DNA from: an uncultured Calditrichaceae bacterium
GTDB taxonomy: Bacteria > Zhuqueibacterota > Zhuqueibacteria > Oceanimicrobiales > Oceanimicrobiaceae
Length of the DNA: 22,572 nt
Reading direction: 5' to 3'
NCBI GenBank assembly: GCA_964629935.1
Contig: CAZVSL010000032.1
Coordinates: forward strand, 1-22,572
The notes beneath the pieces were generated by a model that did not search any database, had not been told where the DNA came from, and saw nothing but the letters and a program-made list of their open reading frames with translations. This document shows positions 861 to 12,426 of this stretch, piece by piece. How positions within the stretch are numbered: the stretch's first letter is position 1; each line of letters begins with the position of its first letter. The translations under genes were made by a program, and so were the position numbers.

Positions 861-1655
861 TCAGAACTTGCCGCGCACCCTCTCCTTCGCCGGCAGAATT
901 TCCAGACAGGTCGTCCACCAGCCCGTCAGCACCGTCTCGATGAACTCCTGCGGGATGGCCTCGGTTTGCATTTCCGCCGCCAGGCGCTCATAGTCATATT
1001 CCAACGGCATGAACTCGATGCCCAACTCACCATTGGCGCTCAGGATGGCATACCAGACATTGGTTTTGCCATCATTTTCCGGCCGCCCGATAACACCAAC
1101 ATTGGCGAACAACTTATCATGGTCGATCCTGCGTTGCCAGTGGATGCCCGTATGCGTCGCCAGAATGACATCGACGTCATAGTCGCGAAACAGCTTTTCC
1201 AGAAAATGGTCCGGCGTGGTCGATTCCCACATAAACTCATTGGTTTGCCGCGGCGAGCCATGACACATCAGCACCCGCCTGCCTCCAAACTCCAGCCGAA
1301 TTTCCGGTGGCAACTGTTTCTGATAGCGTTTGAATTCGTCGCTGGTGTGAGCGAAACTGTAATCGTAACTTAACTGCGCAAAATGGTTGTCGCGCGGATC
1401 CGTATAGCCGCACTGGCAATCGCTCAGATTATTGCCGATCGAGTGGTCATAATTGCCCTGCACGACTTTGATGCCATGTTCGCGCAGAATGGGATAAACC
1501 CGATCCGGGTGCGGCCCAAAGGCGCCGAGATCGCCCAGACAGTACAAATCATGGATGCCGCGTTGGCGGGCGTCATCGATCAGCGCTTGCAAGGCGAGAT
1601 AGTTGTTATACACACCGCCGAAGACGGCTATCTTGCGAGATTCAACTTTATTCAT
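861..1655 (-). CDS. Calcineurin-like metallophosphoesterase (YfcE/diadenosine-tetraphosphatase-like fold)
   Basis: 264-aa ORF with metallophosphoesterase motifs in order: GDLG (GD), GNYD (GNHD/E-like), and later GH..TH motifs (LMCHGSP..., ILATHTGIHW). It lies 57 bp downstream of arsM on the same strand. Confidence 0.75.
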   Translation of the reverse strand: MNKVESRKIAVFGGVYNNYLALQALIDDARQRGIHDLYCLGDLGAFGPHPDRVYPILREHGIKVVQGNYDHSIGNNLSDCQCGYTDPRDNHFAQLSYDYSFAHTSDEFKRYQKQLPPEIRLEFGGRRVLMCHGSPRQTNEFMWESTTPDHFLEKLFRDYDVDVILATHTGIHWQRRIDHDKLFANVGVIGRPENDGKTNVWYAILSANGELGIEFMPLEYDYERLAAEMQTEAIPQEFIETVLTGWWTTCLEILPAKERVRGKF

Positions 1656-1712
1656 AAGATAATTCTAAACCTATATGTCCCATTTTCGATTCCGGTTTCC
1701 GACGAGGCAACC

Positions 1713-2900
1713 TCAACAGCAATCCGGTCCACAGGCCGGCCCATCGCTGAGCTCCGTGGCGTTGTATTCCATGCCCTTGGTTTCACGCGGATGCCGGCGC
1801 GCGTTTTTGTTGCACGCGAATTGAACCGCTTCTGCTAGCGGAATTTCCTCGCGCGGCGCAACCGCGATGATGTCTTGCGCGTAAGGCGCCTGCTTGTAGA
1901 TGTTGAACGTTTTGTCACACACGGCCATGCGCTCACCGCGGTACAGTGTATGCCCATCGTCATCGATTACTGCTTTCCACGGACCTTTGTAGATCACGGC
2001 CTGGTTACGCTCCAGGCAGGGGCCTTCTTTACCTTTGTAGGCTGTGATGGTGACGGAACGAAATTCAATACCCTCGACGGTCTGCCACGGCTGCTCGTCG
2101 CGCTTTTCGATTTGGATGCCGTAAAATCCGATGTCGGCAAATGCTTGCAGAAATTCATCCTCCCGCAGTGCGCCGGAAATGCAGCCGCTCCAGAGTTCGG
2201 GATCATTTTTCATGTGCGCGGGGACATCTTCGTCCGACACGATGTCCGAAATGGCGACGCGGCCGCCCCTTTTCAGCACGCGGTGGATTTCCTGAAACAA
2301 CTGCTTTTTCGCTTCATCCTTGACAAGATTGAGCACGCAATTGGATACAACCAGGTCGATGGAGCCGTCCGGGATCAACGGGCGCTTGCTGCGCTGCTCC
2401 TCGATGAACTCTTCGTAGGCAATCAGATCAGAGGCGCTTTTGAGTGGATTCTCACGCAAGTACATATCGACGTTATCCAGGCCGAGCTTCAAATCCTCGA
2501 TTTTGCCGCGCCGAAATTCGATATTGTGATAGCCGATGCGGTCGCCTACTTCCTTCTGATACCTGCGTGCGAGCTGCAACATATCTTCGTTCAGGTCGAC
2601 GCCGATAACCTTGCCGTGCGGTCCCACCATCTGCGACACGATATAACAAATTTTGCCTGTGCCGCTGCCTAAATCGAGCACCGTCTCGCCTTCGCGCACG
2701 TAGCGTGAAGGGTCGCCGCAGCCGTAGTCGCGCTCAATGATCTCGCGCGGTATGACCTCCAGATAGCTGGTGTCATATTCTACCGGGCAACACAAGGCCG
2801 TTTCGCGCGCCTGCGCTCCCTGACCGTAACGCTCGCGCACGGCTTTTGCCACGTTGAGTTTTCTGCCATTTGTTTCGTTCTCTTGAACGACCGTACTCAT
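1713..2900 (-). CDS. arsM: Arsenite S-adenosylmethionine methyltransferase (ArsM/AS3MT family)
   Basis: 395 aa. SAM motif I is VLDLGSGTGKICYIVSQ. The characteristic ArsM signature blocks DLVVSNCVLNLV and WSGCISGAL (conserved As-binding Cys residues) are present, plus N-terminal Cys residues (LCCP, YGCGDP). The C-terminal extension is typical of ArsM. An RBS AGAGGA lies 9 nt upstream of the ATG at 2900. Confidence 0.75.
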   Translation of the reverse strand: MSTVVQENETNGRKLNVAKAVRERYGQGAQARETALCCPVEYDTSYLEVIPREIIERDYGCGDPSRYVREGETVLDLGSGTGKICYIVSQMVGPHGKVIGVDLNEDMLQLARRYQKEVGDRIGYHNIEFRRGKIEDLKLGLDNVDMYLRENPLKSASDLIAYEEFIEEQRSKRPLIPDGSIDLVVSNCVLNLVKDEAKKQLFQEIHRVLKRGGRVAISDIVSDEDVPAHMKNDPELWSGCISGALREDEFLQAFADIGFYGIQIEKRDEQPWQTVEGIEFRSVTITAYKGKEGPCLERNQAVIYKGPWKAVIDDDGHTLYRGERMAVCDKTFNIYKQAPYAQDIIAVAPREEIPLAEAVQFACNKNARRHPRETKGMEYNATELSDGPACGPDCC

Positions 2901-3149
2901 AATCGAAATCCTCTCTTAAGCTTATTATTTCAACTCAGCCACAAAGGCGCCAGGATTCACAAAGACTTATGAAGTCCCAGCCGGCGAAGGCGCAGTGACA
3001 TCGAAATTCGGATATCGAAACCCTGAAAACCGGACATGATGGCAAGTCACGATTTATGGGTTTCGAATTCCAATTTTCGGTTTTCATACTCTCTATACTT
3101 TGTGTCCTTTGGGGACCCTTTGTGACTTGGTGGTAATGAATAAATCAAG

Positions 3150-4118
3150 TTAATTGTTTGAATTTGAAGAACCGGAAAAATTGTGACAGATTGCGCCTGA
3201 GATATAACAGGTATAACAGGCCTGATGCTTCAAGGGATAGGGCTGAAAGGAATCTGCCAGCGTATCCGCAACCTTCGCTTCCGGGTAGTCGATCAGAATG
3301 GGGCAGACGTAGACGCCTTTGTCTGTGACCATGCGACTGTGTGTGCACTGCAGCAGGCCATCGTCAAAGTCCAGCATCATCTCACGCGTGATGTATTCGT
3401 AGTTGTCGTACCCGCGGTCGCGCACTTTTTCCCGCCCGATGCGCAGCGGCGGGATGATTTTGACCCGCGGCCGCGTATAGCCAATGCTGTGCATCAACTC
3501 GACAAAGCCTTTGAAGATGGTTTCCGTCTCCGCATCATCCCAGGTCTGCGCCACAGTGATGATAGGCAGAAAACCATGCTGCACCAGCGTTTCCACACCT
3601 TTCATCGCTTTGTCAAAGCTGCCCTGGCCGCGGATACGGTCATTGGCCTCGGCCGTGAAGCCATCGATACTGACGCGCAATTCCAATGAGTACCTCGAAT
3701 CATCGACAATCTGTTTCAGGCGTCTTGCCACACGCTTGTTGATCAGGATGCCGTTGGTCAGGACCGTTGCCGGACCGATGGCCAGCGTATCTTCCAGGAT
3801 GTCGAGCATGTCGCGGTTCATGAACGGCTCGCCGCCGGTGAAGTAGTACTCCTTGACGCCGATCTGCTGCGACTCGTCCAGGTAGCGTTTCACTTGCTCG
3901 CGTGACATGAAACCGAATTTGTGATTTTCAGGGCTGCAGCTTATAAAGCAGTGCGTGCACCAGAGATTACAGATGGTGCCGCCAACCTGAAACCAGAGTG
4001 CGTCAAGGCTGTGCAGCGGCGCCCAGGCAGTTTCGTCTTCATCCGGTTGAAAGGCGTCCTGTTCTGCGAATTCAATAATGTCATTTGTGTCATGTACTTT
4101 CAATACTTCGAGGCTCAT
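3150..4118 (-). CDS. arsS: Radical SAM enzyme of the ArsS (arsenosugar-biosynthesis) family with a C-terminal Cys-rich tail
   Basis: 322 aa. It has a CxxxCxxC radical-SAM cluster motif (CNLWCTHC) near the N-terminus, a GGEP motif (FTGGEPFM), and a C-terminal Cys-rich segment QACYTCYISGAICHNFSG. The gene sits next to arsM and its stop overlaps the start of the upstream oxidoreductase (ATGA). Confidence 0.7.
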   Translation of the reverse strand: MSLEVLKVHDTNDIIEFAEQDAFQPDEDETAWAPLHSLDALWFQVGGTICNLWCTHCFISCSPENHKFGFMSREQVKRYLDESQQIGVKEYYFTGGEPFMNRDMLDILEDTLAIGPATVLTNGILINKRVARRLKQIVDDSRYSLELRVSIDGFTAEANDRIRGQGSFDKAMKGVETLVQHGFLPIITVAQTWDDAETETIFKGFVELMHSIGYTRPRVKIIPPLRIGREKVRDRGYDNYEYITREMMLDFDDGLLQCTHSRMVTDKGVYVCPILIDYPEAKVADTLADSFQPYPLKHQACYTCYISGAICHNFSGSSNSNN

Positions 4119-5383
4119 ACGCTCACTTTCGAGTCTAATGCTTCGGTTCCTTCATAAAGATTCAGCTTCGGGTCTCCGGTTATCAAAGAGAACACCTCGA
4201 CGATCTGGCTCAGGCCTGTACGCAGCAGAAAAGTCGGATTGCGGCCGTAACTTTTGTTGCCGATGATATAGAAATCAGGCTCGGGATTTTTCAGTGTGTC
4301 GGCGCCCATGCTGCCTTGCGCCAGGCAATCCGCTGAGCCGTCGGCAGCGCCAAGCAATGCGGCCGAGAGTTTCATCGGGCCGCGCGAGGCATAACACTCA
4401 TGCACCTGTAGCTCGCGGTATAACGAGTTGTCCGGGCCGTAACCAACATTGGCGATCACGCGGTCCACGGTGATTGTTTGCGATTGTCCATTGCGTCTGA
4501 GTCCCACGCGAAACCGGTCTTCGGAATCGAGATATTCAACGGTATCTATTGTTGTATTATTCCGGAATTCTATGTGCTTTGCGCCGCCTGCGGCCAGTTC
4601 GTTTGCCTGCGCGGTGAGTGCTGCCCGGCCGGATAAAGCGTCATTTTCGATGATGGGAATGGGCGCCCGGCGGTTATCGCGGATGGTCCAGAGCAATGAG
4701 GCGCCGGTTTCCTCGCGGATGAGCCTGGCAAAATCGCACACAGTGGTGGCTGCCGAATAACCGCCGCCCACCAGCAAGGTCTTCTTGCCGGCAAACCGCG
4801 ACCGATGTGCACCACATACATCGCGCAGATGATAATCGATGTGCGGCCGGCTGCGGCGCTCCCCGAGCGCCGGGATGCCGCCTTCGCCCAGATGGTTGGG
4901 CGTGTCATAGACGCCGGAGGCATCCAGCACACAATCGGCAAAATAGACGCGTTCGCGCCCTTCCGAATTCGTTGTGAGGATGCGAAATTGGAAATCGGAA
5001 CGCCCGGCATCACCGATCAAATCGCCTTTCAGAATATTGGTGCGTCCGATTGATTCGACTTTGACGCCGGTATGGATTCGCCCCTGCAACGCAGGCAAAC
5101 TGCTCAGAGGCTTGAGGTAGCTGCCGACAAATTCGTTGCCTGTCTGAATCGCGTCTGCTTCCGGTTCCTGCCAGTCATGAATATGCTGTCTTAGCTTTGC
5201 CGCCGCCAGCGCAGAGCGGTTCATGCTCCAGGGAGAGAACAGGCGAACATGCCCCCAGCGGGAAATGTTCTCTCCTACCAGCCCTTTTTCGAAAACATCG
5301 ATGTCAAATCCAAGCTCAGAAGCGTAAAGCGCGGCCTCCAGGCCTGCCGGACCGGCGCCAATTATGGCGATGCGTTTTTTCAT
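4115..5383 (-). CDS. FAD/NAD(P)-binding oxidoreductase (two dinucleotide-binding motifs; flavin monooxygenase / pyridine-nucleotide-disulfide oxidoreductase-like)
   Basis: 422 aa. It has an N-terminal Rossmann motif IAIIGAGPAGL and a second motif LLVGGGYSAATTV. A strong RBS GGAGGA lies 4 nt before the ATG at 5383. The 4-bp overlap with arsS indicates translational coupling. Confidence 0.75.
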   Translation of the reverse strand: MKKRIAIIGAGPAGLEAALYASELGFDIDVFEKGLVGENISRWGHVRLFSPWSMNRSALAAAKLRQHIHDWQEPEADAIQTGNEFVGSYLKPLSSLPALQGRIHTGVKVESIGRTNILKGDLIGDAGRSDFQFRILTTNSEGRERVYFADCVLDASGVYDTPNHLGEGGIPALGERRSRPHIDYHLRDVCGAHRSRFAGKKTLLVGGGYSAATTVCDFARLIREETGASLLWTIRDNRRAPIPIIENDALSGRAALTAQANELAAGGAKHIEFRNNTTIDTVEYLDSEDRFRVGLRRNGQSQTITVDRVIANVGYGPDNSLYRELQVHECYASRGPMKLSAALLGAADGSADCLAQGSMGADTLKNPEPDFYIIGNKSYGRNPTFLLRTGLSQIVEVFSLITGDPKLNLYEGTEALDSKVSV

Positions 5384-5434: not shown

Positions 5435-5611
5435 AGGATGCTAAACAGTCCATCGAGCGCGAATATTCCACAGAATATTTCGATTTTAATAATGCCCGGG
5501 TTGATAATTTAACGGGAGAGCATGAAGGAGAAATACAGTATTAGTCAGGGATTAAATAGCCGCAGGATTTGTCCCATGTCGCAGACGACATGGGATTTCA
5601 GACTTCGCGCT

Positions 5612-5827
5612 TCAGAGTTTTGCAAAAATTTCTGCATGGTCCGGGAATCGGCCAAGTTCTTTTTTGGAAAAAATGAGCTTGCCGTCCTTTTTCACTTCGA
5701 ACACCCCGCCAGAGCCTTCAATCAGAGTGACGTCAATATCAGGATGTCGGTTTTCGATGTCTGCCTTCAAACTGGAGGCTTTCGGAAGGTAGTTTCACAT
5801 AACACAGTATTCAATCGAAACGTGCAT
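5612..5827 (-). CDS. SelW/Rdx-family selenoprotein (CxxU motif; in-frame UGA at 5797..5795 read as selenocysteine)
   Basis: Minus-strand translation from the ATG at 5827 (RBS GAGGAGA 6 nt upstream) gives MHVSIEYCVM-U-NYLPKASSLKADIENRHPDIDVTLIEGSGGVFEVKKDGKLIFSKKELGRFPDHAEIFAKL*. The hallmark Rdx features are present: IEYC-xx-U at the N-terminus, GGxFEV and GRFP blocks, and a length of about 71 aa. A hairpin (CCUUC...GAAGG) starts 5 nt after the UGA. The gene was missed by the ORF track because of the UGA. Confidence 0.8.
5764..5789 (-). other. Candidate bacterial SECIS element (stem-loop immediately 3' of the Sec-UGA of the SelW-like gene)
   Basis: On the mRNA: UGA-AACUA-CCUUC-CGAAAGCCUCCAGUUU-GAAGG. 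There is a 5-bp G/C-rich basal stem with additional internal A-U pairs. It lies at the position expected for a bSECIS, within about 10-35 nt downstream of the UGA. Confidence 0.45.
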
Positions 5828-6078
5828 TTCGGTTCTCCTCATGATAAGCACTTTTCCGGATTTTGTCCTTCATGAAAGGTAAGAAGTTTGCGTAAACATG
5901 CAAGCAAATTTCAGGCTTCAGGCGAGCAGGTTCTGAATTCAACCGGCTGGCGATAGCCAGAGAAGAAAGCGCATGCAAAGGAATACCAAATTCCAAACAA
6001 ATTGCGCTTTCGCGCCGGAGGTTAGCTTGGTGGTTCCGCATCAAGCTATCATCTTACGAAGCAGTTTGTAAAGTTTGG

Positions 6079-6107: not shown

Positions 6108-6346
6108 TTTTCGCCTTGTCGGATCGATCCAGCCTTTGGTCTTGATTATTCACAAACTGGTATTTTATGCTCCAAATCGAAATTCTGAGTGTTAAGAGGG
6201 TATGATCGGTGTTGGCGCTTCAGCGTGTCCTCTTCGCTGACTTGTGGCATCACAGACCGCCAGTCCGACCTGCAGCCCGGCAAGAGAGATTCTGAAAACT
6301 AGGTTAATCATCGTAACTGAAACCGTCGTCTGTGGAGGAGAGGAGT

Positions 6347-6799
6347 ATGGATTTTCAACTTGATTATTGGCACTGGCTGGTACTTGGTATGGCGCTGGTC
6401 CTTGCCGAGCTATTCGTGCCGAGTTTTACCATATTCTGGTTTGGCCTGGCGGCGTTTATTGTGGCCGGGTTTATCTGGCTTATGCCTGTGCTTGCCCTGC
6501 CCTGGCAGATTTTTTTGTGGGCCATCACATCGGCCGGGCTCACGGTCGTGTGGTTAAAGGTCTTCAAGCCCAGACTGGGCGACAGGAGAGAGCTCTCCAG
6601 AGAGGCTGTTTTGGGGGAAAGCGGCCATGTTATCCAAACCCAGGTGGAAGACAAGCCCGGTATTGTACGCTTCACAACCCCGCTTCTTGGCTCTGATGAA
6701 TGGCCATTTGTATGTGAGCAAAAGGTTGCCGCCGGCGAACGCGTCTTCGTCAAGGACATCGCCGGCACCACCCTGATTGTGGAAAGCCGAAGTAGCTGA
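6347..6799 (+). CDS. NfeD-family membrane protein (short form, C-terminal OB-fold), partner of an SPFH protein
   Basis: Two or three N-terminal TM helices (LVLGMALVLAELFVPSFTIFWFGLAAFIVAGFIWLMPVLALPW...) are followed by a soluble beta-rich C-terminal domain. A strong RBS GGAGGAGAGGAG precedes the ATG at 6347 (the ORF track starts at an upstream GTG at 6332). It lies immediately upstream of the SPFH gene. Confidence 0.8.
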   Translation: MDFQLDYWHWLVLGMALVLAELFVPSFTIFWFGLAAFIVAGFIWLMPVLALPWQIFLWAITSAGLTVVWLKVFKPRLGDRRELSREAVLGESGHVIQTQVEDKPGIVRFTTPLLGSDEWPFVCEQKVAAGERVFVKDIAGTTLIVESRSS

Positions 6800-6846
6800 T
6801 TCGTTGTATCCAAACTAACAACAAACGTTAAATCCGGAGGGAGTCC

Positions 6847-7701
6847 ATGCAGGGTTATATTCTGGTCACCGTGTTTTTTATTCTTATCGTGGTTACCATC
6901 GCTCTGGGCGTACGCATCGTGCCACAGGGCAGCAAGCATATTGTCCAGCGTCTTGGCCGTTATCACCGCACCCTTGGCCCGGGGCTAAACATCGTTATCC
7001 CATATCTCGATTCCATTGCAGAAAAAGTCACAACCAAGGATATCGTGCTCGACATCCCTTCGCAGGAGGTGATTACGCGCGACAATGCCGTAATCATTGC
7101 CAACGCGGTAGCGTATATCAATATCGTATCGCCGGCGAAATCTGTCTATGGCGTGGAGGACTACCGCGTTGCTATCACTAACCTGGTGCAAACCTCACTG
7201 CGTTCCATTATCGGCGAAATGGATTTGGATGACGCGCTTTCCTCACGCGACAAGATTAAGACCCGGCTCATTGCTGAAACCGCCGATGACATCTCGGACT
7301 GGGGTATCTCGCTCAAAACCGTGGAAATTCAGGACATCAACCCCTCTGAGACCATGCAGCGGGCGATGGAGGAGCAGGCCGCGGCTGAACGTGCACGCCG
7401 GGCCCTGGTGACCCGCGCCGGCGGAGAAAAAGAGGCTGCCATTCTGCAGGCCGAGGGCCGCCTGGAAGCCTCGAAACGCGACGCCCAGGCGCAAGTGGTT
7501 CTGGCCGAAGCCAGTCAGCGTGCCATCCAAAAGGTCACCGAAGCCATTCAGACCAACGAGCTGCCGGTTATGTTTCTGCTTGGCGAAAAGTATCTCGAGG
7601 CCGTGAAGAACGTTGCCAGCTCTGACAACGCAAAGGTTGTTGTGCTGCCAGCAGACATCCAGGCTGCCGTACGGGGCATATTCAGCGCTATAGGTAAATA
7701 G
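6847..7701 (+). CDS. SPFH/band-7 (stomatin/paraslipin-like) family protein
   Basis: 284 aa. It has an N-terminal TM helix, then the SPFH core (IVPQGSKHIVQRLGRYHRTLGPGLNIVIPYLD...), and a C-terminal coiled-coil/Ala-Glu-rich region typical of band-7 proteins. RBS GGAGGGAG. Confidence 0.85.
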   Translation: MQGYILVTVFFILIVVTIALGVRIVPQGSKHIVQRLGRYHRTLGPGLNIVIPYLDSIAEKVTTKDIVLDIPSQEVITRDNAVIIANAVAYINIVSPAKSVYGVEDYRVAITNLVQTSLRSIIGEMDLDDALSSRDKIKTRLIAETADDISDWGISLKTVEIQDINPSETMQRAMEEQAAAERARRALVTRAGGEKEAAILQAEGRLEASKRDAQAQVVLAEASQRAIQKVTEAIQTNELPVMFLLGEKYLEAVKNVASSDNAKVVVLPADIQAAVRGIFSAIGK

Positions 7702-7841: not shown

Positions 7842-9044
7842 ATGCAGCTAACGAAAGTTGTAGTTCTAACCATAACTAATCTTAGACTAATAATGCGTTT
7901 CGAGAAAGGTTCTGTCAGAAAAGCTAAGACGTTGACAACAGAATGGATTGCGAATCACTTGTCCCAACATTCTAAATTCATTTCGGTCGGGCTGCCAGAA
8001 TATGACGATAGGCATAATACATGGCGGGTGCCTTTGAATCTTGACAAAGAAAAATCCGTCCTCGTTGGTCAGTTGCAAATCGACCGAGATATATCTCGGA
8101 TCATTGATTCGACCGAAATCCGATTAATCCGGCAAAGAATCGAGAAGAATAAGAACATCAAGACAACTAAGAACTCTACCGCTAAAGGGCTCTTTTATCC
8201 TGCTGCCATACCTAATAAGGTCATTCTTGGGAACTGCATTGATGTATTGGATGAGTTCCCGCCAGATACGGCACAATTGGTTTTTACGTCTCCCCCGTAT
8301 TACAATGCGAAACCTGAGTATTCAGAATATGTCGATTATCAGGAATATCTGGATTTCATGCGGAAATTGATCATAAGAGTTCACGCTATTTTGTCTGAAG
8401 GGCGATTTTTTGTAATCAATATCTCACCTGTGCTGATCAGAAGGACATCTCGTGCAGCATCGAGTAGAAGAATCCCTATTCCTTTTGACTTGCACCGAAT
8501 TTTCGATAGCGTTGGTTTTGATTATATCGATGACATAATCTGGATAAAGCCAGAAGGCGCCGGATGGAATTTGGGTCGTGGCAGAAGGTTCAAGGCGGAT
8601 AGGCAACCTTTGCAATACAAACCCGTTCCGGTAACCGAGTATATCCTTGTTTATAGAAAAAGAACGGACAAACTGATAGATTGGAACATCCGAAAGCACC
8701 ATGACCCTTCGCTCGTTGAAGAGTCTAAGATCACAGGTGATTATGATGTGACAAATGTCTGGCAGATACATCCTGCGTACTCAAGGGTGCATCCGGCAGT
8801 GTTTCCTGAAGAGTTAGCAAGAAGGATAATAATGTATTATTCTTTCAAAGATGATCTGGTCTTGGATCCGTTTGCAGGTATCGGTACAGTTGGCAATGTC
8901 GCATATAGACTGGATAGAAGGTTTTTGCTTGTAGATAACGAGGTCAAGTATTACAGGTATATGAAAGAGACGTTGAGCAACCTCATCCCAATCAACGTTC
9001 GCGTCGATTTTGACATTCATGAGAAATTTAAGAAGAATTCATGA
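7842..9044 (+). CDS. Beta-class DNA amino-methyltransferase (N4-cytosine/N6-adenine; the SPPY motif favours N4mC) with an N-terminal extension of about 110 aa
   Basis: Motif IV TSPPYY comes before the C-terminal motif I DPFAGIGTVG, which is the beta-class order. The typical N-terminal block KVILGNCIDVLDEFPPDTAQLVFTSPPY starts only at about residue 125. The gene is low-GC. An alternative start is the ATG at 7893, and no SD is obvious for either start. Confidence 0.8.
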   Translation: MQLTKVVVLTITNLRLIMRFEKGSVRKAKTLTTEWIANHLSQHSKFISVGLPEYDDRHNTWRVPLNLDKEKSVLVGQLQIDRDISRIIDSTEIRLIRQRIEKNKNIKTTKNSTAKGLFYPAAIPNKVILGNCIDVLDEFPPDTAQLVFTSPPYYNAKPEYSEYVDYQEYLDFMRKLIIRVHAILSEGRFFVINISPVLIRRTSRAASSRRIPIPFDLHRIFDSVGFDYIDDIIWIKPEGAGWNLGRGRRFKADRQPLQYKPVPVTEYILVYRKRTDKLIDWNIRKHHDPSLVEESKITGDYDVTNVWQIHPAYSRVHPAVFPEELARRIIMYYSFKDDLVLDPFAGIGTVGNVAYRLDRRFLLVDNEVKYYRYMKETLSNLIPINVRVDFDIHEKFKKNS

Positions 9045-9985
9045 AGATTGATTACCAGATTGACAGATATCGAGAATGGCTGAATAATAACATAACCTTA
9101 ACCAGCTTATTCTCGCCCGATGCTCTGCGGAAACTTACATACCACCTGTTAATGGGCAGAAATTATCGATTATTGACTGAACCAAATACAAAGGGGCAGC
9201 TTCTAGCCACATTTGTATGGCTCTCAGATATCCAAGAACAGGCAAAAGCCAAGTATAGCTCCGATTGGCTTAAGGCTCTGTTTGACGATATCTATTCAGA
9301 AAAGAGAAAACCGAAAGAGTTACAGAATCTGCTTTTTTGGACTATGGGGTTAACTCAAAAGACGGCAATCAACTTGGGATTGCAAAAAGATGACTATCCC
9401 GAGATACTGGATGAGACAATAGAGTACTTTGGAAAACTGCTCAAGAGTGTCGACAGGGAAGATTTCAAAGACAGTGCATGGTTGCTCTTGATGGCTGGCT
9501 CAGCAACACTGAACATCAGGGGCTCCCAGAAGTCGAAGGTAGGAAAGCAGTTTGAAAGGACCTTCTTGCGGGCTTTGTTGTGCATTCTTGGTTTTGAGGA
9601 AGATACTAACTTCTGGATGAACGTTGGGCGCGACATCGAAGTTGAGAGAGAAGCTGACGCGGAAGTCGAATCCAAGCGGGGCAGAATAAGGATTGAGGTC
9701 GGTTTGATATCATCTGGCAATCAGGAGGTGATAGAAGACAAAATAACACGAGTTGGCCGCAACGGCGTCGTACTGTTCGACAAATTAGGGGCTAAAAGCA
9801 GAGTCTATCAGACCGCGGATAACTATGGGGTTAAATTGGTGCAAATCAGAAACGGCAATCCGTTGTTGGATGTTTTTCGCCATTTGGGACCGCTCGCAAG
9901 GTTTGAATTGAATGTGCCACCAAATACCTCGGAGGAATTGCAGGAAATAGTCAATACACTGCCAGAACAGATATTCACTCTTTAA
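9041..9985 (+). CDS. Putative type II restriction endonuclease partnered with the methyltransferase
   Basis: 314-aa ORF overlapping the methyltransferase stop by 4 bp (ATGA), with the same low GC. A possible PD-(D/E)xK-like segment is GRDIEVEREADAEVESK. The call is by context only; no family was recognised. Confidence 0.45.
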   Translation: MKIDYQIDRYREWLNNNITLTSLFSPDALRKLTYHLLMGRNYRLLTEPNTKGQLLATFVWLSDIQEQAKAKYSSDWLKALFDDIYSEKRKPKELQNLLFWTMGLTQKTAINLGLQKDDYPEILDETIEYFGKLLKSVDREDFKDSAWLLLMAGSATLNIRGSQKSKVGKQFERTFLRALLCILGFEEDTNFWMNVGRDIEVEREADAEVESKRGRIRIEVGLISSGNQEVIEDKITRVGRNGVVLFDKLGAKSRVYQTADNYGVKLVQIRNGNPLLDVFRHLGPLARFELNVPPNTSEELQEIVNTLPEQIFTL

Positions 9986-10381: not shown

Positions 10382-12094
10382 TCACCGTATGAACAGCATC
10401 TTGCGGCTGGCGCTCAGTTGGTTGCTTTCCAGTTTATAGAGATATAAGCCTGATGCAACGCGCAGCCCGCGTTGATCGCGGCCATCCCACACCACCGTGT
10501 GCAGGCCGGCGGATTCATCTCCGTTTACCAATTCCACTACAAGCTGTCCGGTCAGATTGAAAATGACGAGCCGCACCTGTCCGGCGCGCGGTAGCGTGTA
10601 GCGAATCGTGGTCCGTGGATTAAACGGATTCGGATAGTTCTGCATCAGCGCGAATCCTGACGGAATTTCCGCGGGCACATCATCGATGGCAGTCGTAATT
10701 CCGGGCGACAGCTCGTTGAGATACTCTTCGATGTTGGTGTAGCCGTCACCGTTGCGATCTGCACTGGCATCGGTTGGGTCTGCGGGGTCGAGGCCGCGGG
10801 CGCTCTCCCAGTCGTCCGGCATGCCATCCCGGTCGGTGTCGGCAAGGGGGGCGCCGGTTTCCGGGGGCGATACGGTGATCTGCGCCTGCGACAATGTGTC
10901 GGCTCCCAGGTTACCTGTAAAATTTTGGTAATCGCTGATGAATTTCTCATCAGCCGGATCGTGCGGCAGCGCCCCGGCGTTCTCCAGCATGTACGCTTCG
11001 AGATTCGGGATGTCGGTGATCGCAGGCGCAGTGAACGCGGTGTCGATCACTTCCGCAAGCATGCCTCTGGCTGCGAAAACGAGCTCAGACTGCTCTTCGG
11101 GACACACAACCACGTCGACATCATTTTGGCGCGTCATCCAGCAATTATCCTGCAGGAAAACTCGCGTTCCGGTAGAATCGCGGTCCACGGCTTCCAGCGG
11201 CAGATTCCCTTTGGTTTGCGGTCCCTGGCGCACCAGGTTGCCGACAATGTTGGTCTGCGCGCCGCGTCCGAACTGAATACCCTTTTCTCCGAAGTTGTAC
11301 ACCAGATTGAAGCGCACATCTGTGACCGGAAAATCCGAGGCGCCCAGCTCGCTGTTGCCGGCGAGACTGGGATTGCGGCGATTGTTGGAGATCATGAAAT
11401 TGTGGTGCATCGAGACGCGAAAGGTGCCGTCGGAGGCGATCATGCCGCGACTGTGCGGGCCGCCGGAGGGATGCCCGCCGTTGAGCAGTCCTTCTGCGAT
11501 CAGACAGTGCTGCACGGTGATATCGTGGTTCATGCGCGTGTTGGTGCTCTCCAGACTGACGCCCTCGTCCGCAAACCAGGAGAAGGAGCAGTGGTCGACC
11601 ACCACGTCATAACACCCCGCGAACTCGATGCCATCGCCAATGCTGCCGAGGCGGCCGTCAACCAGCGTTTTGCGCACCCGCAGATGGCGGATGATGACGT
11701 CGTGCACATCATTGCGCAGGGAAACCGGGAAATTGGTCAGGAGGATGCCGCCGCCCGGCGCGCTCTGGCCGGCGATGGTCACATAGGAGTACGGATTGTC
11801 GCCGCTGAACGAGGCATTGCGTGGCCCACCGATGGCGAGCGGCTCGCGAAGCTCGATGATGCCGCTGACCCGGAAGACGATGATTCTGGGGAACTGCTGC
11901 TCGACCGCCCAGCGCAGGGTGCCCTCGCTGCCGTCATCGCTGAGCTTGTCGACGATGAGCACGGTGCCGCCACGACCGCCGGGCGTGGTCGCGCCCCAGC
12001 CTTCGGCGCCGGGAAAGGCGGGAAGTTGGGCTGTGACTGGCGACACGGGCATAGATAAACAGAGAAGAATAGCTGAAAAGGACAGGTTCTTCAT
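10382..12094 (-). CDS. Secreted right-handed beta-helix (pectate-lyase-like) protein with Ca-binding thrombospondin-type-3-like repeats and a T9SS (Por) C-terminal sorting domain
   Basis: Signal peptide MKNLSFSAILLCLSMPVSPVTAQ (start at the ATG at 12094 with RBS AGGAG; the ORF track's longer start is unlikely). Beta-helix repeats are rich in G/N/D/H/S. Asp-rich repeats are DTDRDGMPDDWE and DADRNGDGYTNIEEY. The C-terminus NYPNPFNPRTTIRYTLP...LYLYKL is typical of T9SS type-A CTDs. Confidence 0.75.
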   Translation of the reverse strand: MKNLSFSAILLCLSMPVSPVTAQLPAFPGAEGWGATTPGGRGGTVLIVDKLSDDGSEGTLRWAVEQQFPRIIVFRVSGIIELREPLAIGGPRNASFSGDNPYSYVTIAGQSAPGGGILLTNFPVSLRNDVHDVIIRHLRVRKTLVDGRLGSIGDGIEFAGCYDVVVDHCSFSWFADEGVSLESTNTRMNHDITVQHCLIAEGLLNGGHPSGGPHSRGMIASDGTFRVSMHHNFMISNNRRNPSLAGNSELGASDFPVTDVRFNLVYNFGEKGIQFGRGAQTNIVGNLVRQGPQTKGNLPLEAVDRDSTGTRVFLQDNCWMTRQNDVDVVVCPEEQSELVFAARGMLAEVIDTAFTAPAITDIPNLEAYMLENAGALPHDPADEKFISDYQNFTGNLGADTLSQAQITVSPPETGAPLADTDRDGMPDDWESARGLDPADPTDASADRNGDGYTNIEEYLNELSPGITTAIDDVPAEIPSGFALMQNYPNPFNPRTTIRYTLPRAGQVRLVIFNLTGQLVVELVNGDESAGLHTVVWDGRDQRGLRVASGLYLYKLESNQLSASRKMLFIR

Positions 12095-12426
12095 GGTAGA
12101 GGTCTCCTGATTTTTCCCATGGCGGCAAAGCCGCATGAGGTTATGCTGATTGTCAAGCCTACTTATGCAACCACCATGCCGGATAACTATGCTCTATATA
12201 TCGGCAAAATAGGCTGATCTTAATCGATCAGGAAAGGATGGATTGTTGATCTCGGTGGCAAGGTGTACCTCCTTGCGCAGCTTCGCTGCACTAAGAAGGA
12301 CACGTACACGAGATTCGAAGGCCAGAAATGTCAAAGGTGTGTTCTGCAATCTCCGGCGGCGCTGGCGAATTTGACTTGCTTGCGTCTGCAATAACTTCAG
12401 TTCTTGCAGTTTGCAAGGCACATACA

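Follow-up and report, generated by a model that had tools for sequence, protein, structure and literature searches.

The stretch of DNA considered here – 22,572 nucleotides from an uncultured Calditrichaceae bacterium (contig CAZVSL010000032.1), hereafter the window – carries four genes that lie head to tail and co-oriented on the minus strand between positions 861 and 5383. From upstream to downstream these encode a flavoprotein of 422 amino acids (4115–5383), a radical S-adenosylmethionine (SAM) protein of 322 (3150–4118), an ArsM-like methyltransferase of 395 (1713–2900) and a protein of the metallophosphoesterase fold (MPE) of 264 (861–1655); the classes are those given by Pfam (Pyr_redox_2/3, Radical_SAM, Methyltransf_31/25/11 and Metallophos_2). 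A sequence-only reading had drawn attention to the four open reading frames, to the motifs VVSNCVLNL, WSGCISGAL and CNLWCTHC, to an ATGA overlap between the stop codon of the flavoprotein gene and the start codon of the radical SAM gene (4115–4118, minus strand), and to a gap of 57 bp between arsM and the MPE gene (1656–1712): all are present, the motifs in the translations. What that reading made of them – a core of ArsM and the radical SAM enzyme ArsS, completed by two tailoring enzymes, in an operon devoted to biosynthesis – has fared less uniformly. Its view of the locus as arsenic-related and biosynthetic is supported, and so is the enlistment of both flanking genes in that function; the identification of ArsS, the arsenosugar type of the methyltransferase, the composition of the core and the role given to the MPE are not. 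Our analysis leads us to propose, with moderate confidence, that the four genes constitute a module for organoarsenical biosynthesis, built around a two-gene core and distinct from both known radical SAM routes to a carbon–arsenic bond.

Evidence for the composition of the core came from the neighbourhoods of 84 non-redundant loci, drawn from species-representative genomes, that carry relatives of the radical SAM protein. An MPE gene co-oriented with the radical SAM gene is found in 75 of these, and lies directly downstream of it in 62 of the 76 loci with room for one. The flavoprotein gene directly precedes the radical SAM gene less often (26 of 77 loci with room), and an ArsM-like gene is present in just 20 of the 84. 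Wherever they are present the four gene types are always co-oriented, and the exact order seen in the window recurs in eight other species-level loci with different flanks (for example L003); that the same order should recur amid unrelated flanking genes indicates that the arrangement is not the product of chance. The conserved core is the pair of radical SAM and MPE genes, with the flavoprotein and ArsM as accessories: the earlier picture of an ArsM–ArsS core with two added enzymes is thus inverted, the methyltransferase being the optional member.

Gene fusions connect the same four components. Flavoprotein and radical SAM domains are joined in L010, L014, P0261, P0262 and P0273, radical SAM and ArsM domains in L016 and L017, and MPE and radical SAM domains in P0372. 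MPE and ArsM domains are joined in P0452 and P0481, both of which exceed curated ArsM cutoffs: in P0452 (L091:8001–10022) an MPE domain of the branch termed type B below is fused to an arsenosugar ArsM (465 bits, cutoff 400), and in P0481 to an ArsM that scores 280 bits as an arsenite methyltransferase. The gene for P0452 adjoins a divergently oriented transporter of the phosphonate-binding-protein ABC type. Together, conserved synteny and fusions bear out the expectation that the flavoprotein and the MPE would recur with the radical SAM and ArsM genes of other genomes.

The radical SAM protein has the expected CxxxCxxC motif (Cys50, Cys54 and Cys57) and matches the Pfam Radical_SAM domain at 70.7 bits, and yet it is not the ArsS that it had been taken for. 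Against the ArsS model, TIGR04167, it scores 57.6 bits where the cutoff is 300, and the match is limited to the N-terminal core (residues 37–183, corresponding to positions 6–148 of 303 in the model). Pfam finds no match in it to DUF3641, the cysteine- or selenocysteine-rich C-terminal domain of ArsS, and nothing in NCBIfam, searched as far as E ≤ 10, matches its C-terminal 140 residues, so that neither a SPASM domain nor an ArsS tail can be assigned to the C-terminal half by sequence. There are nonetheless likenesses. As with ArsS, a radical SAM enzyme is here genetically coupled to a methyltransferase of the ArsM family; its C-terminus too is rich in cysteine; accessory families found with ArsS (TIGR04282, TIGR04283 and TIGR04169) also accompany relatives of the window protein; and a gene resembling methylthioadenosine (MTA) phosphorylase occurs in a sister system described below. 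The differences go beyond the failure of the family model and the missing domain: the ArsM is of another subtype and is optional in loci of this family, whereas the near-constant partner – an MPE resembling the arsenate reductase Car1 – lies outside the ArsS system as described.

The second known enzyme of this kind, ArsL, can likewise be set aside. ArsL of Burkholderia gladioli has 428 residues, with its CX3CX2C motif at residues 194–201 (PMC8552651), and ArsL ends in a tail whose RCCLKC motif binds arsenite (bioRxiv 10.1101/2024.02.01.577332). The window protein has 322 residues, carries its motif at 50–57 and lacks the N-terminal domain of about 190 residues that precedes the motif in ArsL; its tail, QACYTCYISGAICHNF, contains CYTCYISGAIC and has no RCCLKC. 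What it shares with the arsQML arsinothricin system of B. gladioli is a cysteine-rich C-terminal tail and a radical SAM gene that adjoins, or in relatives is fused to, arsM; ArsQ and control by ArsR have no counterpart with the window module. Six further cysteines (C61, C258, C272, C301, C304 and C311) are invariant among 63 homologues. An AlphaFold (AF2) model (mean predicted local distance difference test score, pLDDT, 83) has as its closest folds BlsE, SkfB, MoaA and anSME, all twitch/SPASM enzymes, and its C-terminal extension is twitch/SPASM-like. Judging from the model, the cysteine-rich C-terminus may house an auxiliary Fe–S cluster, an arsenic-binding site, or both.

On the strength of these comparisons the protein belongs to an unnamed and widespread family that is neither ArsS nor ArsL. 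A genome scan places relatives in at least 582 species-representative genomes from many phyla, among them KSB1, Calditrichota, Ignavibacteriota, Gemmatimonadota, Planctomycetota and Acidobacteriota. Searches of protein databases with the module proteins returned only unnamed relatives, labelled 'radical SAM protein', 'metallophosphoesterase family protein' or 'thioredoxin reductase', and plasmid matches to the radical SAM protein in Marinobacter and Streptantibioticus are unannotated or apparently degraded. The best-scoring NCBIfam family is that of Rv1681, or MoeX, of Mycobacterium tuberculosis (NF049973; 111 bits, cutoff 380). A domain that resembles that family more closely (267 bits) is the radical SAM part of P0372, where it is joined to an MPE of type B; it too falls below the cutoff, is about 30% identical to the window protein over the core only, and lacks the multi-cysteine C-terminal tail. 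We propose that the window protein represents a new family, sister to that of Rv1681/MoeX.

The second member of the core, the MPE, had been regarded as a candidate for processing phospho-esters downstream. Our data suggest that it probably is not. It matches Metallophos_2 at 42.7 bits and has relatives of known structure (PDB 1nnw, 3rqz and 3qfm); no NCBIfam family matches it. A tblastn search of plasmids returned 73 records, some 30% identical to it (E about 1e-32), and all three of those inspected lie inside ars operons: arsR–MPE–acr3–arsM in Paraclostridium, arsR–DUF6428–MPE–GNAT–acr3–arsC in Hymenobacter, and arsM–arsR–MPE–arsC–arsC–MIP in Rubrobacter, with MPEs 30–33% identical to that of the window. 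The first of these operons has been described as arsR-orf1-acr3-arsM: its Orf1 shares about 40% identity with Car1, an arsenate reductase of the metallophosphoesterase type from Rufibacter tibetensis, and has the two residues essential in that enzyme, Cys74 and Cys76 (PMC12124457). Cys80 and Cys82 of the window protein align with these two residues – the alignment being to this homologue of Car1, and not to Car1 itself – and the Cys80-x-Cys82 pair is invariant in 58 members of the family.

A survey of motifs in 64 representatives places the MPEs linked to radical SAM genes in a large and coherent branch, which we call type B. The window protein shares with Car1 the calcineurin-like phosphoesterase fold, the GD, GNYD and HGS motifs and the essential Cys-x-Cys. 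It differs in that motif I, SDxHxN, has become GGxYxN (GGVYNN in the window) and motif V, GHTHxP, has become THTGxH (THTGIH in the window), with loss of the last histidine. The motifs of a complete binuclear site (DxH...GD...GNxD...H...GHxH) are therefore not all present: with the aspartate and histidine of motif I and one histidine of motif V gone, one of the two metals has lost its ligands. Car1 itself is reportedly a binuclear enzyme. Type-B proteins have in addition a family-specific C-terminal segment, TGWWTTCLE, that contains a further conserved cysteine (Cys250), and they are found outside ars operons, paired or fused with radical SAM or ArsM proteins; it is the fusions with ArsM that connect them to arsenic in place of an ars operon. 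Such features would be consistent with specialisation toward cysteine-based reduction of arsenate or capture of As(III). Because the protein is homologous to MPEs of the Car1 type found in ars operons, and keeps their Cys-x-Cys, we place it upstream in the putative pathway, as a supplier of As(III).

The methyltransferase scores highest against NF040538, the family of arsinothricin ArsM (383 bits, cutoff 500), followed by PRK11873 (200.8 bits, cutoff 263); against NF038099, the arsenosugar ArsM, it reaches 134.9 bits where 400 are required. It thus lies below every curated NCBIfam ArsM cutoff, and is clearly a member of the ArsM family without being an equivalog of any named subtype. All four catalytic cysteines of ArsM, the pattern whose absence would have refuted the earlier assignment to this family, are present: the conserved cysteines at 37/38, 61, 188 and 240, of which the last three are the equivalents of Cys72, Cys174 and Cys224 of CmArsM in an alignment with its structures (4fr0/4kw7). 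Their spacing, 24/127/52, is that of BgArsM (Cys30/54/181/233; PMC8552651), whereas that of CmArsM is 28/102/50, and the protein ends in CGPDCC. This spacing, together with a CGPDxCC tail, recurs in 14 of 15 ArsMs linked to radical SAM genes of this family, and the four As(III)-binding cysteines in all 15. Judged by best family and cysteine spacing the window protein is of the same subtype as BgArsM – arsinothricin-like, and not arsenosugar-like as had been supposed – albeit under the equivalog cutoff of that family.

The flavoprotein is of the two-Rossmann NAD(P)H/FAD type (Pfam Pyr_redox_3/2). Its AF2 model (pLDDT 93) most closely resembles the bacillithiol-disulfide reductase Bdr/YpdA (PDB 7a76; E 5e-22, target-normalised template-modelling score 0.86), followed by the ferredoxin-NADP+ reductase (FNR) of the thioredoxin reductase (TrxR)-like type and by TrxR. 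With YpdA/Bdr only the fold, with its two Rossmann domains, is shared: the score against TIGR04018 is 45.9 bits (cutoff 339.9), the loop that reads GGGPCG in YpdA, and holds its active-site cysteine, reads GAGPAG here, and the flavoprotein has some 100 extra residues and two cysteines of its own, Cys330 and Cys353, that are invariant in its family. In L004, L023 and L025 the gene order is radical SAM – MPE – AhpD-like CxxC protein – flavoprotein, the AhpD-like protein standing at the threshold of TIGR04169 (120.2 bits, cutoff 120). Such an order has the look of a relay of reductases that ends at the Cys-x-Cys pair of the MPE; given the fusions of flavoprotein and radical SAM domains, the flavoprotein may instead donate electrons to the radical SAM enzyme. 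The small genes directly after the MPE gene in some loci (L004:9781–10110, L007:9727–10287 and L066:9693–10190) encode either this AhpD-like protein or a protein of 165–186 amino acids with a domain resembling the N-terminal part of asparaginase.

Wider neighbourhoods offer clues to the chemistry. Three families that NCBIfam names as associated with arsenosugar biosynthesis – TIGR04282, TIGR04283 and TIGR04169 – are represented (the first by TIGR04282-like genes) in 20 of the 84 loci, and in L076 TIGR04283 and TIGR04282 are fused, each above its cutoff. Transporters of uptake type recur: PiT/CysP-like proteins, a phosphate-type porin resembling Porin_O_P, a solute symporter and PhnD-like proteins. 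Loci of the Ignavibacteriota and Bacteroidota (L034, L076, L032, L035 and related ones) are more elaborate, in that the radical SAM–MPE pair is preceded by a gene for a phosphate-selective-porin-like protein and by a divergent gene for a protein resembling sodium:solute symporters, is often followed by that for a flavoprotein resembling ferredoxin reductase, and lies near genes for glycosyltransferases and DUF547, which hints at a more extensive pathway particular to these lineages.

A related arrangement is found in the sister system. In L093:3219–10134 (JGI 3300031670; also L094 and L095) a tightly packed operon comprises an MTA-phosphorylase-like gene, TIGR04282 (182 bits, cutoff 134), TIGR04283 (229 bits, cutoff 182), a transporter of the major facilitator superfamily (MFS), P0372 – the type-B MPE fused to a radical SAM domain like that of Rv1681 – and a flavoprotein resembling CrtI/CrtO. 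No nucleoside phosphorylase, MFS transporter or CrtI-like gene like those of L093 was found among the 84 loci. If adenine had to be removed from a 5'-substituted 5'-deoxyadenosine, an MTA-family phosphorylase would be the enzyme to look for, and it is possible that this operon gives the Rv1681/MoeX family, described in the literature we retrieved mainly as a urine antigen or biomarker of tuberculosis, an arsenosugar-like context. A cultured carrier of the pair also exists: plasmid p546-1 of Roseomonas haemaphysalidis 546 (NZ_CP061178.1; L096:847–7807) has the order TIGR04282 glycosyltransferase – DUF547 – radical SAM – radical SAM – PhnD/E/C-like transporter – type-B MPE. Its homologue of the window radical SAM protein is 33% identical, with the C-terminal cysteines conserved; the second radical SAM protein, of 459 amino acids, is of no recognised type.

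From these observations we infer a scheme of which every chemical step, the identity of the transferred group and, in loci without ArsM, arsenic itself as the substrate are conjectural. Arsenate would be imported as an analogue of phosphate. The type-B MPE would reduce it to As(III) through Cys80 and Cys82, or at least capture As(III), and hand it on to the radical SAM enzyme, which would add a carbon radical derived from SAM to form the carbon–arsenic bond. That radical is most likely the 5'-deoxyadenosyl radical, as in ArsS – a preference that stems from the context of glycosyltransferases and phosphorylase. The subtype of the ArsM keeps a 3-amino-3-carboxypropyl group alive as a rival. The resulting mono-alkyl As(III) species would be methylated by the arsinothricin-type ArsM, with the flavoprotein either re-reducing the Cys-x-Cys disulfide at the expense of NAD(P)H or feeding electrons to the cluster of the radical SAM enzyme. 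Although the window protein is not ArsS, that it works like ArsS is plausible, since arsenosugar-associated families and an MTA-phosphorylase-like gene adjoin its relatives or their Rv1681-like sisters.

A number of points weigh against this scheme. The arsenosugar-associated families and the phosphorylase belong to relatives, the window itself containing none of them, and the NCBIfam names that link those families to arsenosugars were themselves derived from genomic context. The arsinothricin-like subtype of the ArsM is at odds with a 5'-deoxyadenosyl product. In the 64 of 84 loci that have no ArsM, only the homology of the Cys-x-Cys pair and the families found alongside speak for arsenic. 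Having lost the aspartate and histidine of motif I and one histidine of motif V, the type-B MPE may not work like Car1; the cysteines of the radical SAM protein, given its twitch/SPASM fold matches, may merely hold auxiliary Fe–S clusters; and a dedicated reductase for that protein is not obviously needed, as the catalysis of ArsS is redox-neutral (PMC13598754). With arsR, acr3 and arsC not found by tblastn in the window or in any of the 84 loci, responsiveness to arsenic can only be presumed.

How far do other explanations account for the same data? The interpretation first given to the locus – that a canonical ArsS and ArsM make 5'-deoxy-5'-dimethylarsinoyl-adenosine (DDMAA), while the flavoprotein and MPE provide downstream arsenic redox chemistry and phospho-ester processing – draws on the arsenosugar-associated families and MTA-phosphorylase-like gene that occur with relatives of the radical SAM protein, on the four cysteines of the ArsM, and on an Ap4A hydrolase-type enzyme (3qfm) among the nearest solved structures to the MPE. 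It is nevertheless improbable: the radical SAM protein fails ArsS membership (57.6 against 300 bits) and has no ArsS C-terminal domain, the ArsM scores 135 bits where membership of the arsenosugar type takes 400, and the MPE, having lost two ligands of motif I and a histidine of motif V, has kept the Cys-x-Cys of the arsenate reductases. Moreover, ArsM is missing from 64 of the 84 loci and the MPE from few, so that ArsM and the radical SAM protein are not the core. An arsinothricin-like pathway, in which a non-homologous enzyme has replaced ArsL, deserves slightly more credence, and we still think it unlikely. The best family of the ArsM (NF040538, 383 bits) and a cysteine spacing identical to that of BgArsM (PMC8552651) speak for it, as do the radical SAM–ArsM fusions, the arsenite-binding cysteine-rich C-terminal tail of ArsL (bioRxiv 10.1101/2024.02.01.577332), to which that of the window protein may be compared, and the small asparaginase-like domain gene that follows the radical SAM–MPE pair in a few loci. 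Yet nothing in the radical SAM protein recalls the architecture of ArsL – neither its length, nor the position of its motif, nor a tail with CYTCYISGAIC in place of RCCLKC; no permease of the ArsQ type was seen and a GNAT protein of the ArsN type occurs in only one of the 84 loci; and a context of glycosyltransferases and MTA phosphorylase among relatives better fits a product of the nucleoside or sugar kind.

That the genes serve detoxification or transformation – reduction of arsenate followed by methylation, with the radical SAM protein doing some other job, such as anaerobic cleavage of carbon–arsenic bonds or maturation of a partner protein – seems to us to have little likelihood. Car1-type MPEs do work together with ArsM in resistance operons such as arsR-orf1-acr3-arsM (PMC12124457), and twitch/SPASM enzymes often modify proteins or peptides. 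But a tblastn search of the window and the 84 loci, with plasmid ars proteins as queries (E ≤ 1e-5), found no arsR, acr3, arsC or MIP gene, in keeping with the original observation that classical ars genes are lacking, and the transporters that accompany the pair (PhnD-like, PiT-like and phosphate-type porin) are of uptake type and not exporters. Glycosyltransferases of arsenosugar-associated families co-occur with the pair, and the fusions of radical SAM and ArsM domains argue for successive steps on a single small molecule. The view taken at the outset, that this arsenic module is biosynthesis-like and no classical resistance operon, is in this respect upheld. It might also be that the core pair acts on antimony, selenium, tellurium or phosphite, and is joined by arsenic-type genes in some lineages only. 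The scarcity of ArsM among the loci, transporters annotated for phosphate, phosphite, phosphonate or sulfate, and the original definition of ArsS and its partner families as 'selenodomain-associated' (still visible in the model names perox_w_seleSAM and rSAM_SeCys) all favour such a role. We doubt it strongly: the invariant Cys-x-Cys matches the arsenate-reductase motif, type-B MPE domains are fused to ArsMs that exceed curated arsenite-methyltransferase cutoffs, and every methyltransferase linked to the radical SAM gene keeps the As(III)-binding cysteines.

We return to an organoarsenical-biosynthesis module with a core of radical SAM protein and MPE. In reviews up to September 2026, the radical SAM enzymes named as forming carbon–arsenic bonds are ArsS and ArsL and no others (PMC12159101; PMC13598754), and our searches of the literature found no account of the combination of genes seen here. 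Because neither the radical SAM protein nor the MPE reaches the cutoff of any curated family, and databases give them generic names only, we see here a new variant: radical SAM-dependent organoarsenical biosynthesis that would employ a different radical SAM family and a previously unrecognised, obligate partner. More speculatively – and here we are somewhat more prepared to be wrong than right – this family and its Rv1681/MoeX sister would constitute a third, independent class of carbon–arsenic-forming radical SAM enzymes, with an obligate partner, derived from an MPE, that acts as a cysteine-based arsenate reductase or As(III) carrier. The product would be an organoarsenical outside the known gene sets, for example a mono-methyl adenosyl-arsenical or a variant arsenosugar, made by hundreds of mostly uncultured lineages that import arsenate on purpose.

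Genes for the synthesis of arsenosugars and other organoarsenicals are largely unassigned beyond cyanobacteria and Burkholderia. If our proposal is true, the enzyme families known to form carbon–arsenic bonds would number three, and a function would be found for the many 'metallophosphoesterases' of a branch in which half of the metal site is lost; the proposal would also suggest deliberate uptake of arsenate for biosynthesis, and provide a first functional lead for the Rv1681/MoeX family of M. tuberculosis. The existence of a cultured carrier, R. haemaphysalidis 546 with its plasmid p546-1, makes the question directly testable.

One feature of the window module sets it apart from its relatives, and had gone unmentioned in the sequence-only reading: a non-coding spacer of 249 bp (2901–3149) between the radical SAM gene and arsM, where relatives have 10–80 nt (about 10 nt in L009). 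No Rfam match was found anywhere in the window, the spacer included, and thus no riboswitch accounts for it. Promoter-like and terminator-like matches, those of the spacer included, occur at chance level, and so speak neither for nor against a transcript shared by the four genes. The spacer could hold an internal promoter, or be the remnant of an insertion. A gene for a regulator of the Rrf2 family (L003:7807–8241) stands just ahead of the flavoprotein gene, and in the same orientation, in the closest complete relative (GCA_029261995.1); at the equivalent position the window has no regulator gene, only an unannotated open reading frame of 117 amino acids on the opposite strand (5522–5875).

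The remainder of the window consists of housekeeping genes and a restriction-modification pair of low G+C content. Divergent from the module is a pair encoding an NfeD-like membrane protein and a Band-7/stomatin (SPFH) protein (6332–7701). It is followed at 7842–9985 by the restriction-modification pair, which is of type II and comprises an N6_N4 DNA methylase and an endonuclease of the CfrBI type; its G+C content of 0.42–0.44, against about 0.52 elsewhere in the window, suggests a horizontally acquired islet adjoining the module. At 10382–12136 lies the gene for a protein of 584 amino acids with a FlgD-Ig domain and a C-terminal sorting domain for type IX secretion; this domain, together with the KSB1 and Calditrichota affiliation of the nearest relatives of the module, suggests a source organism of the FCB group, similar to KSB1.

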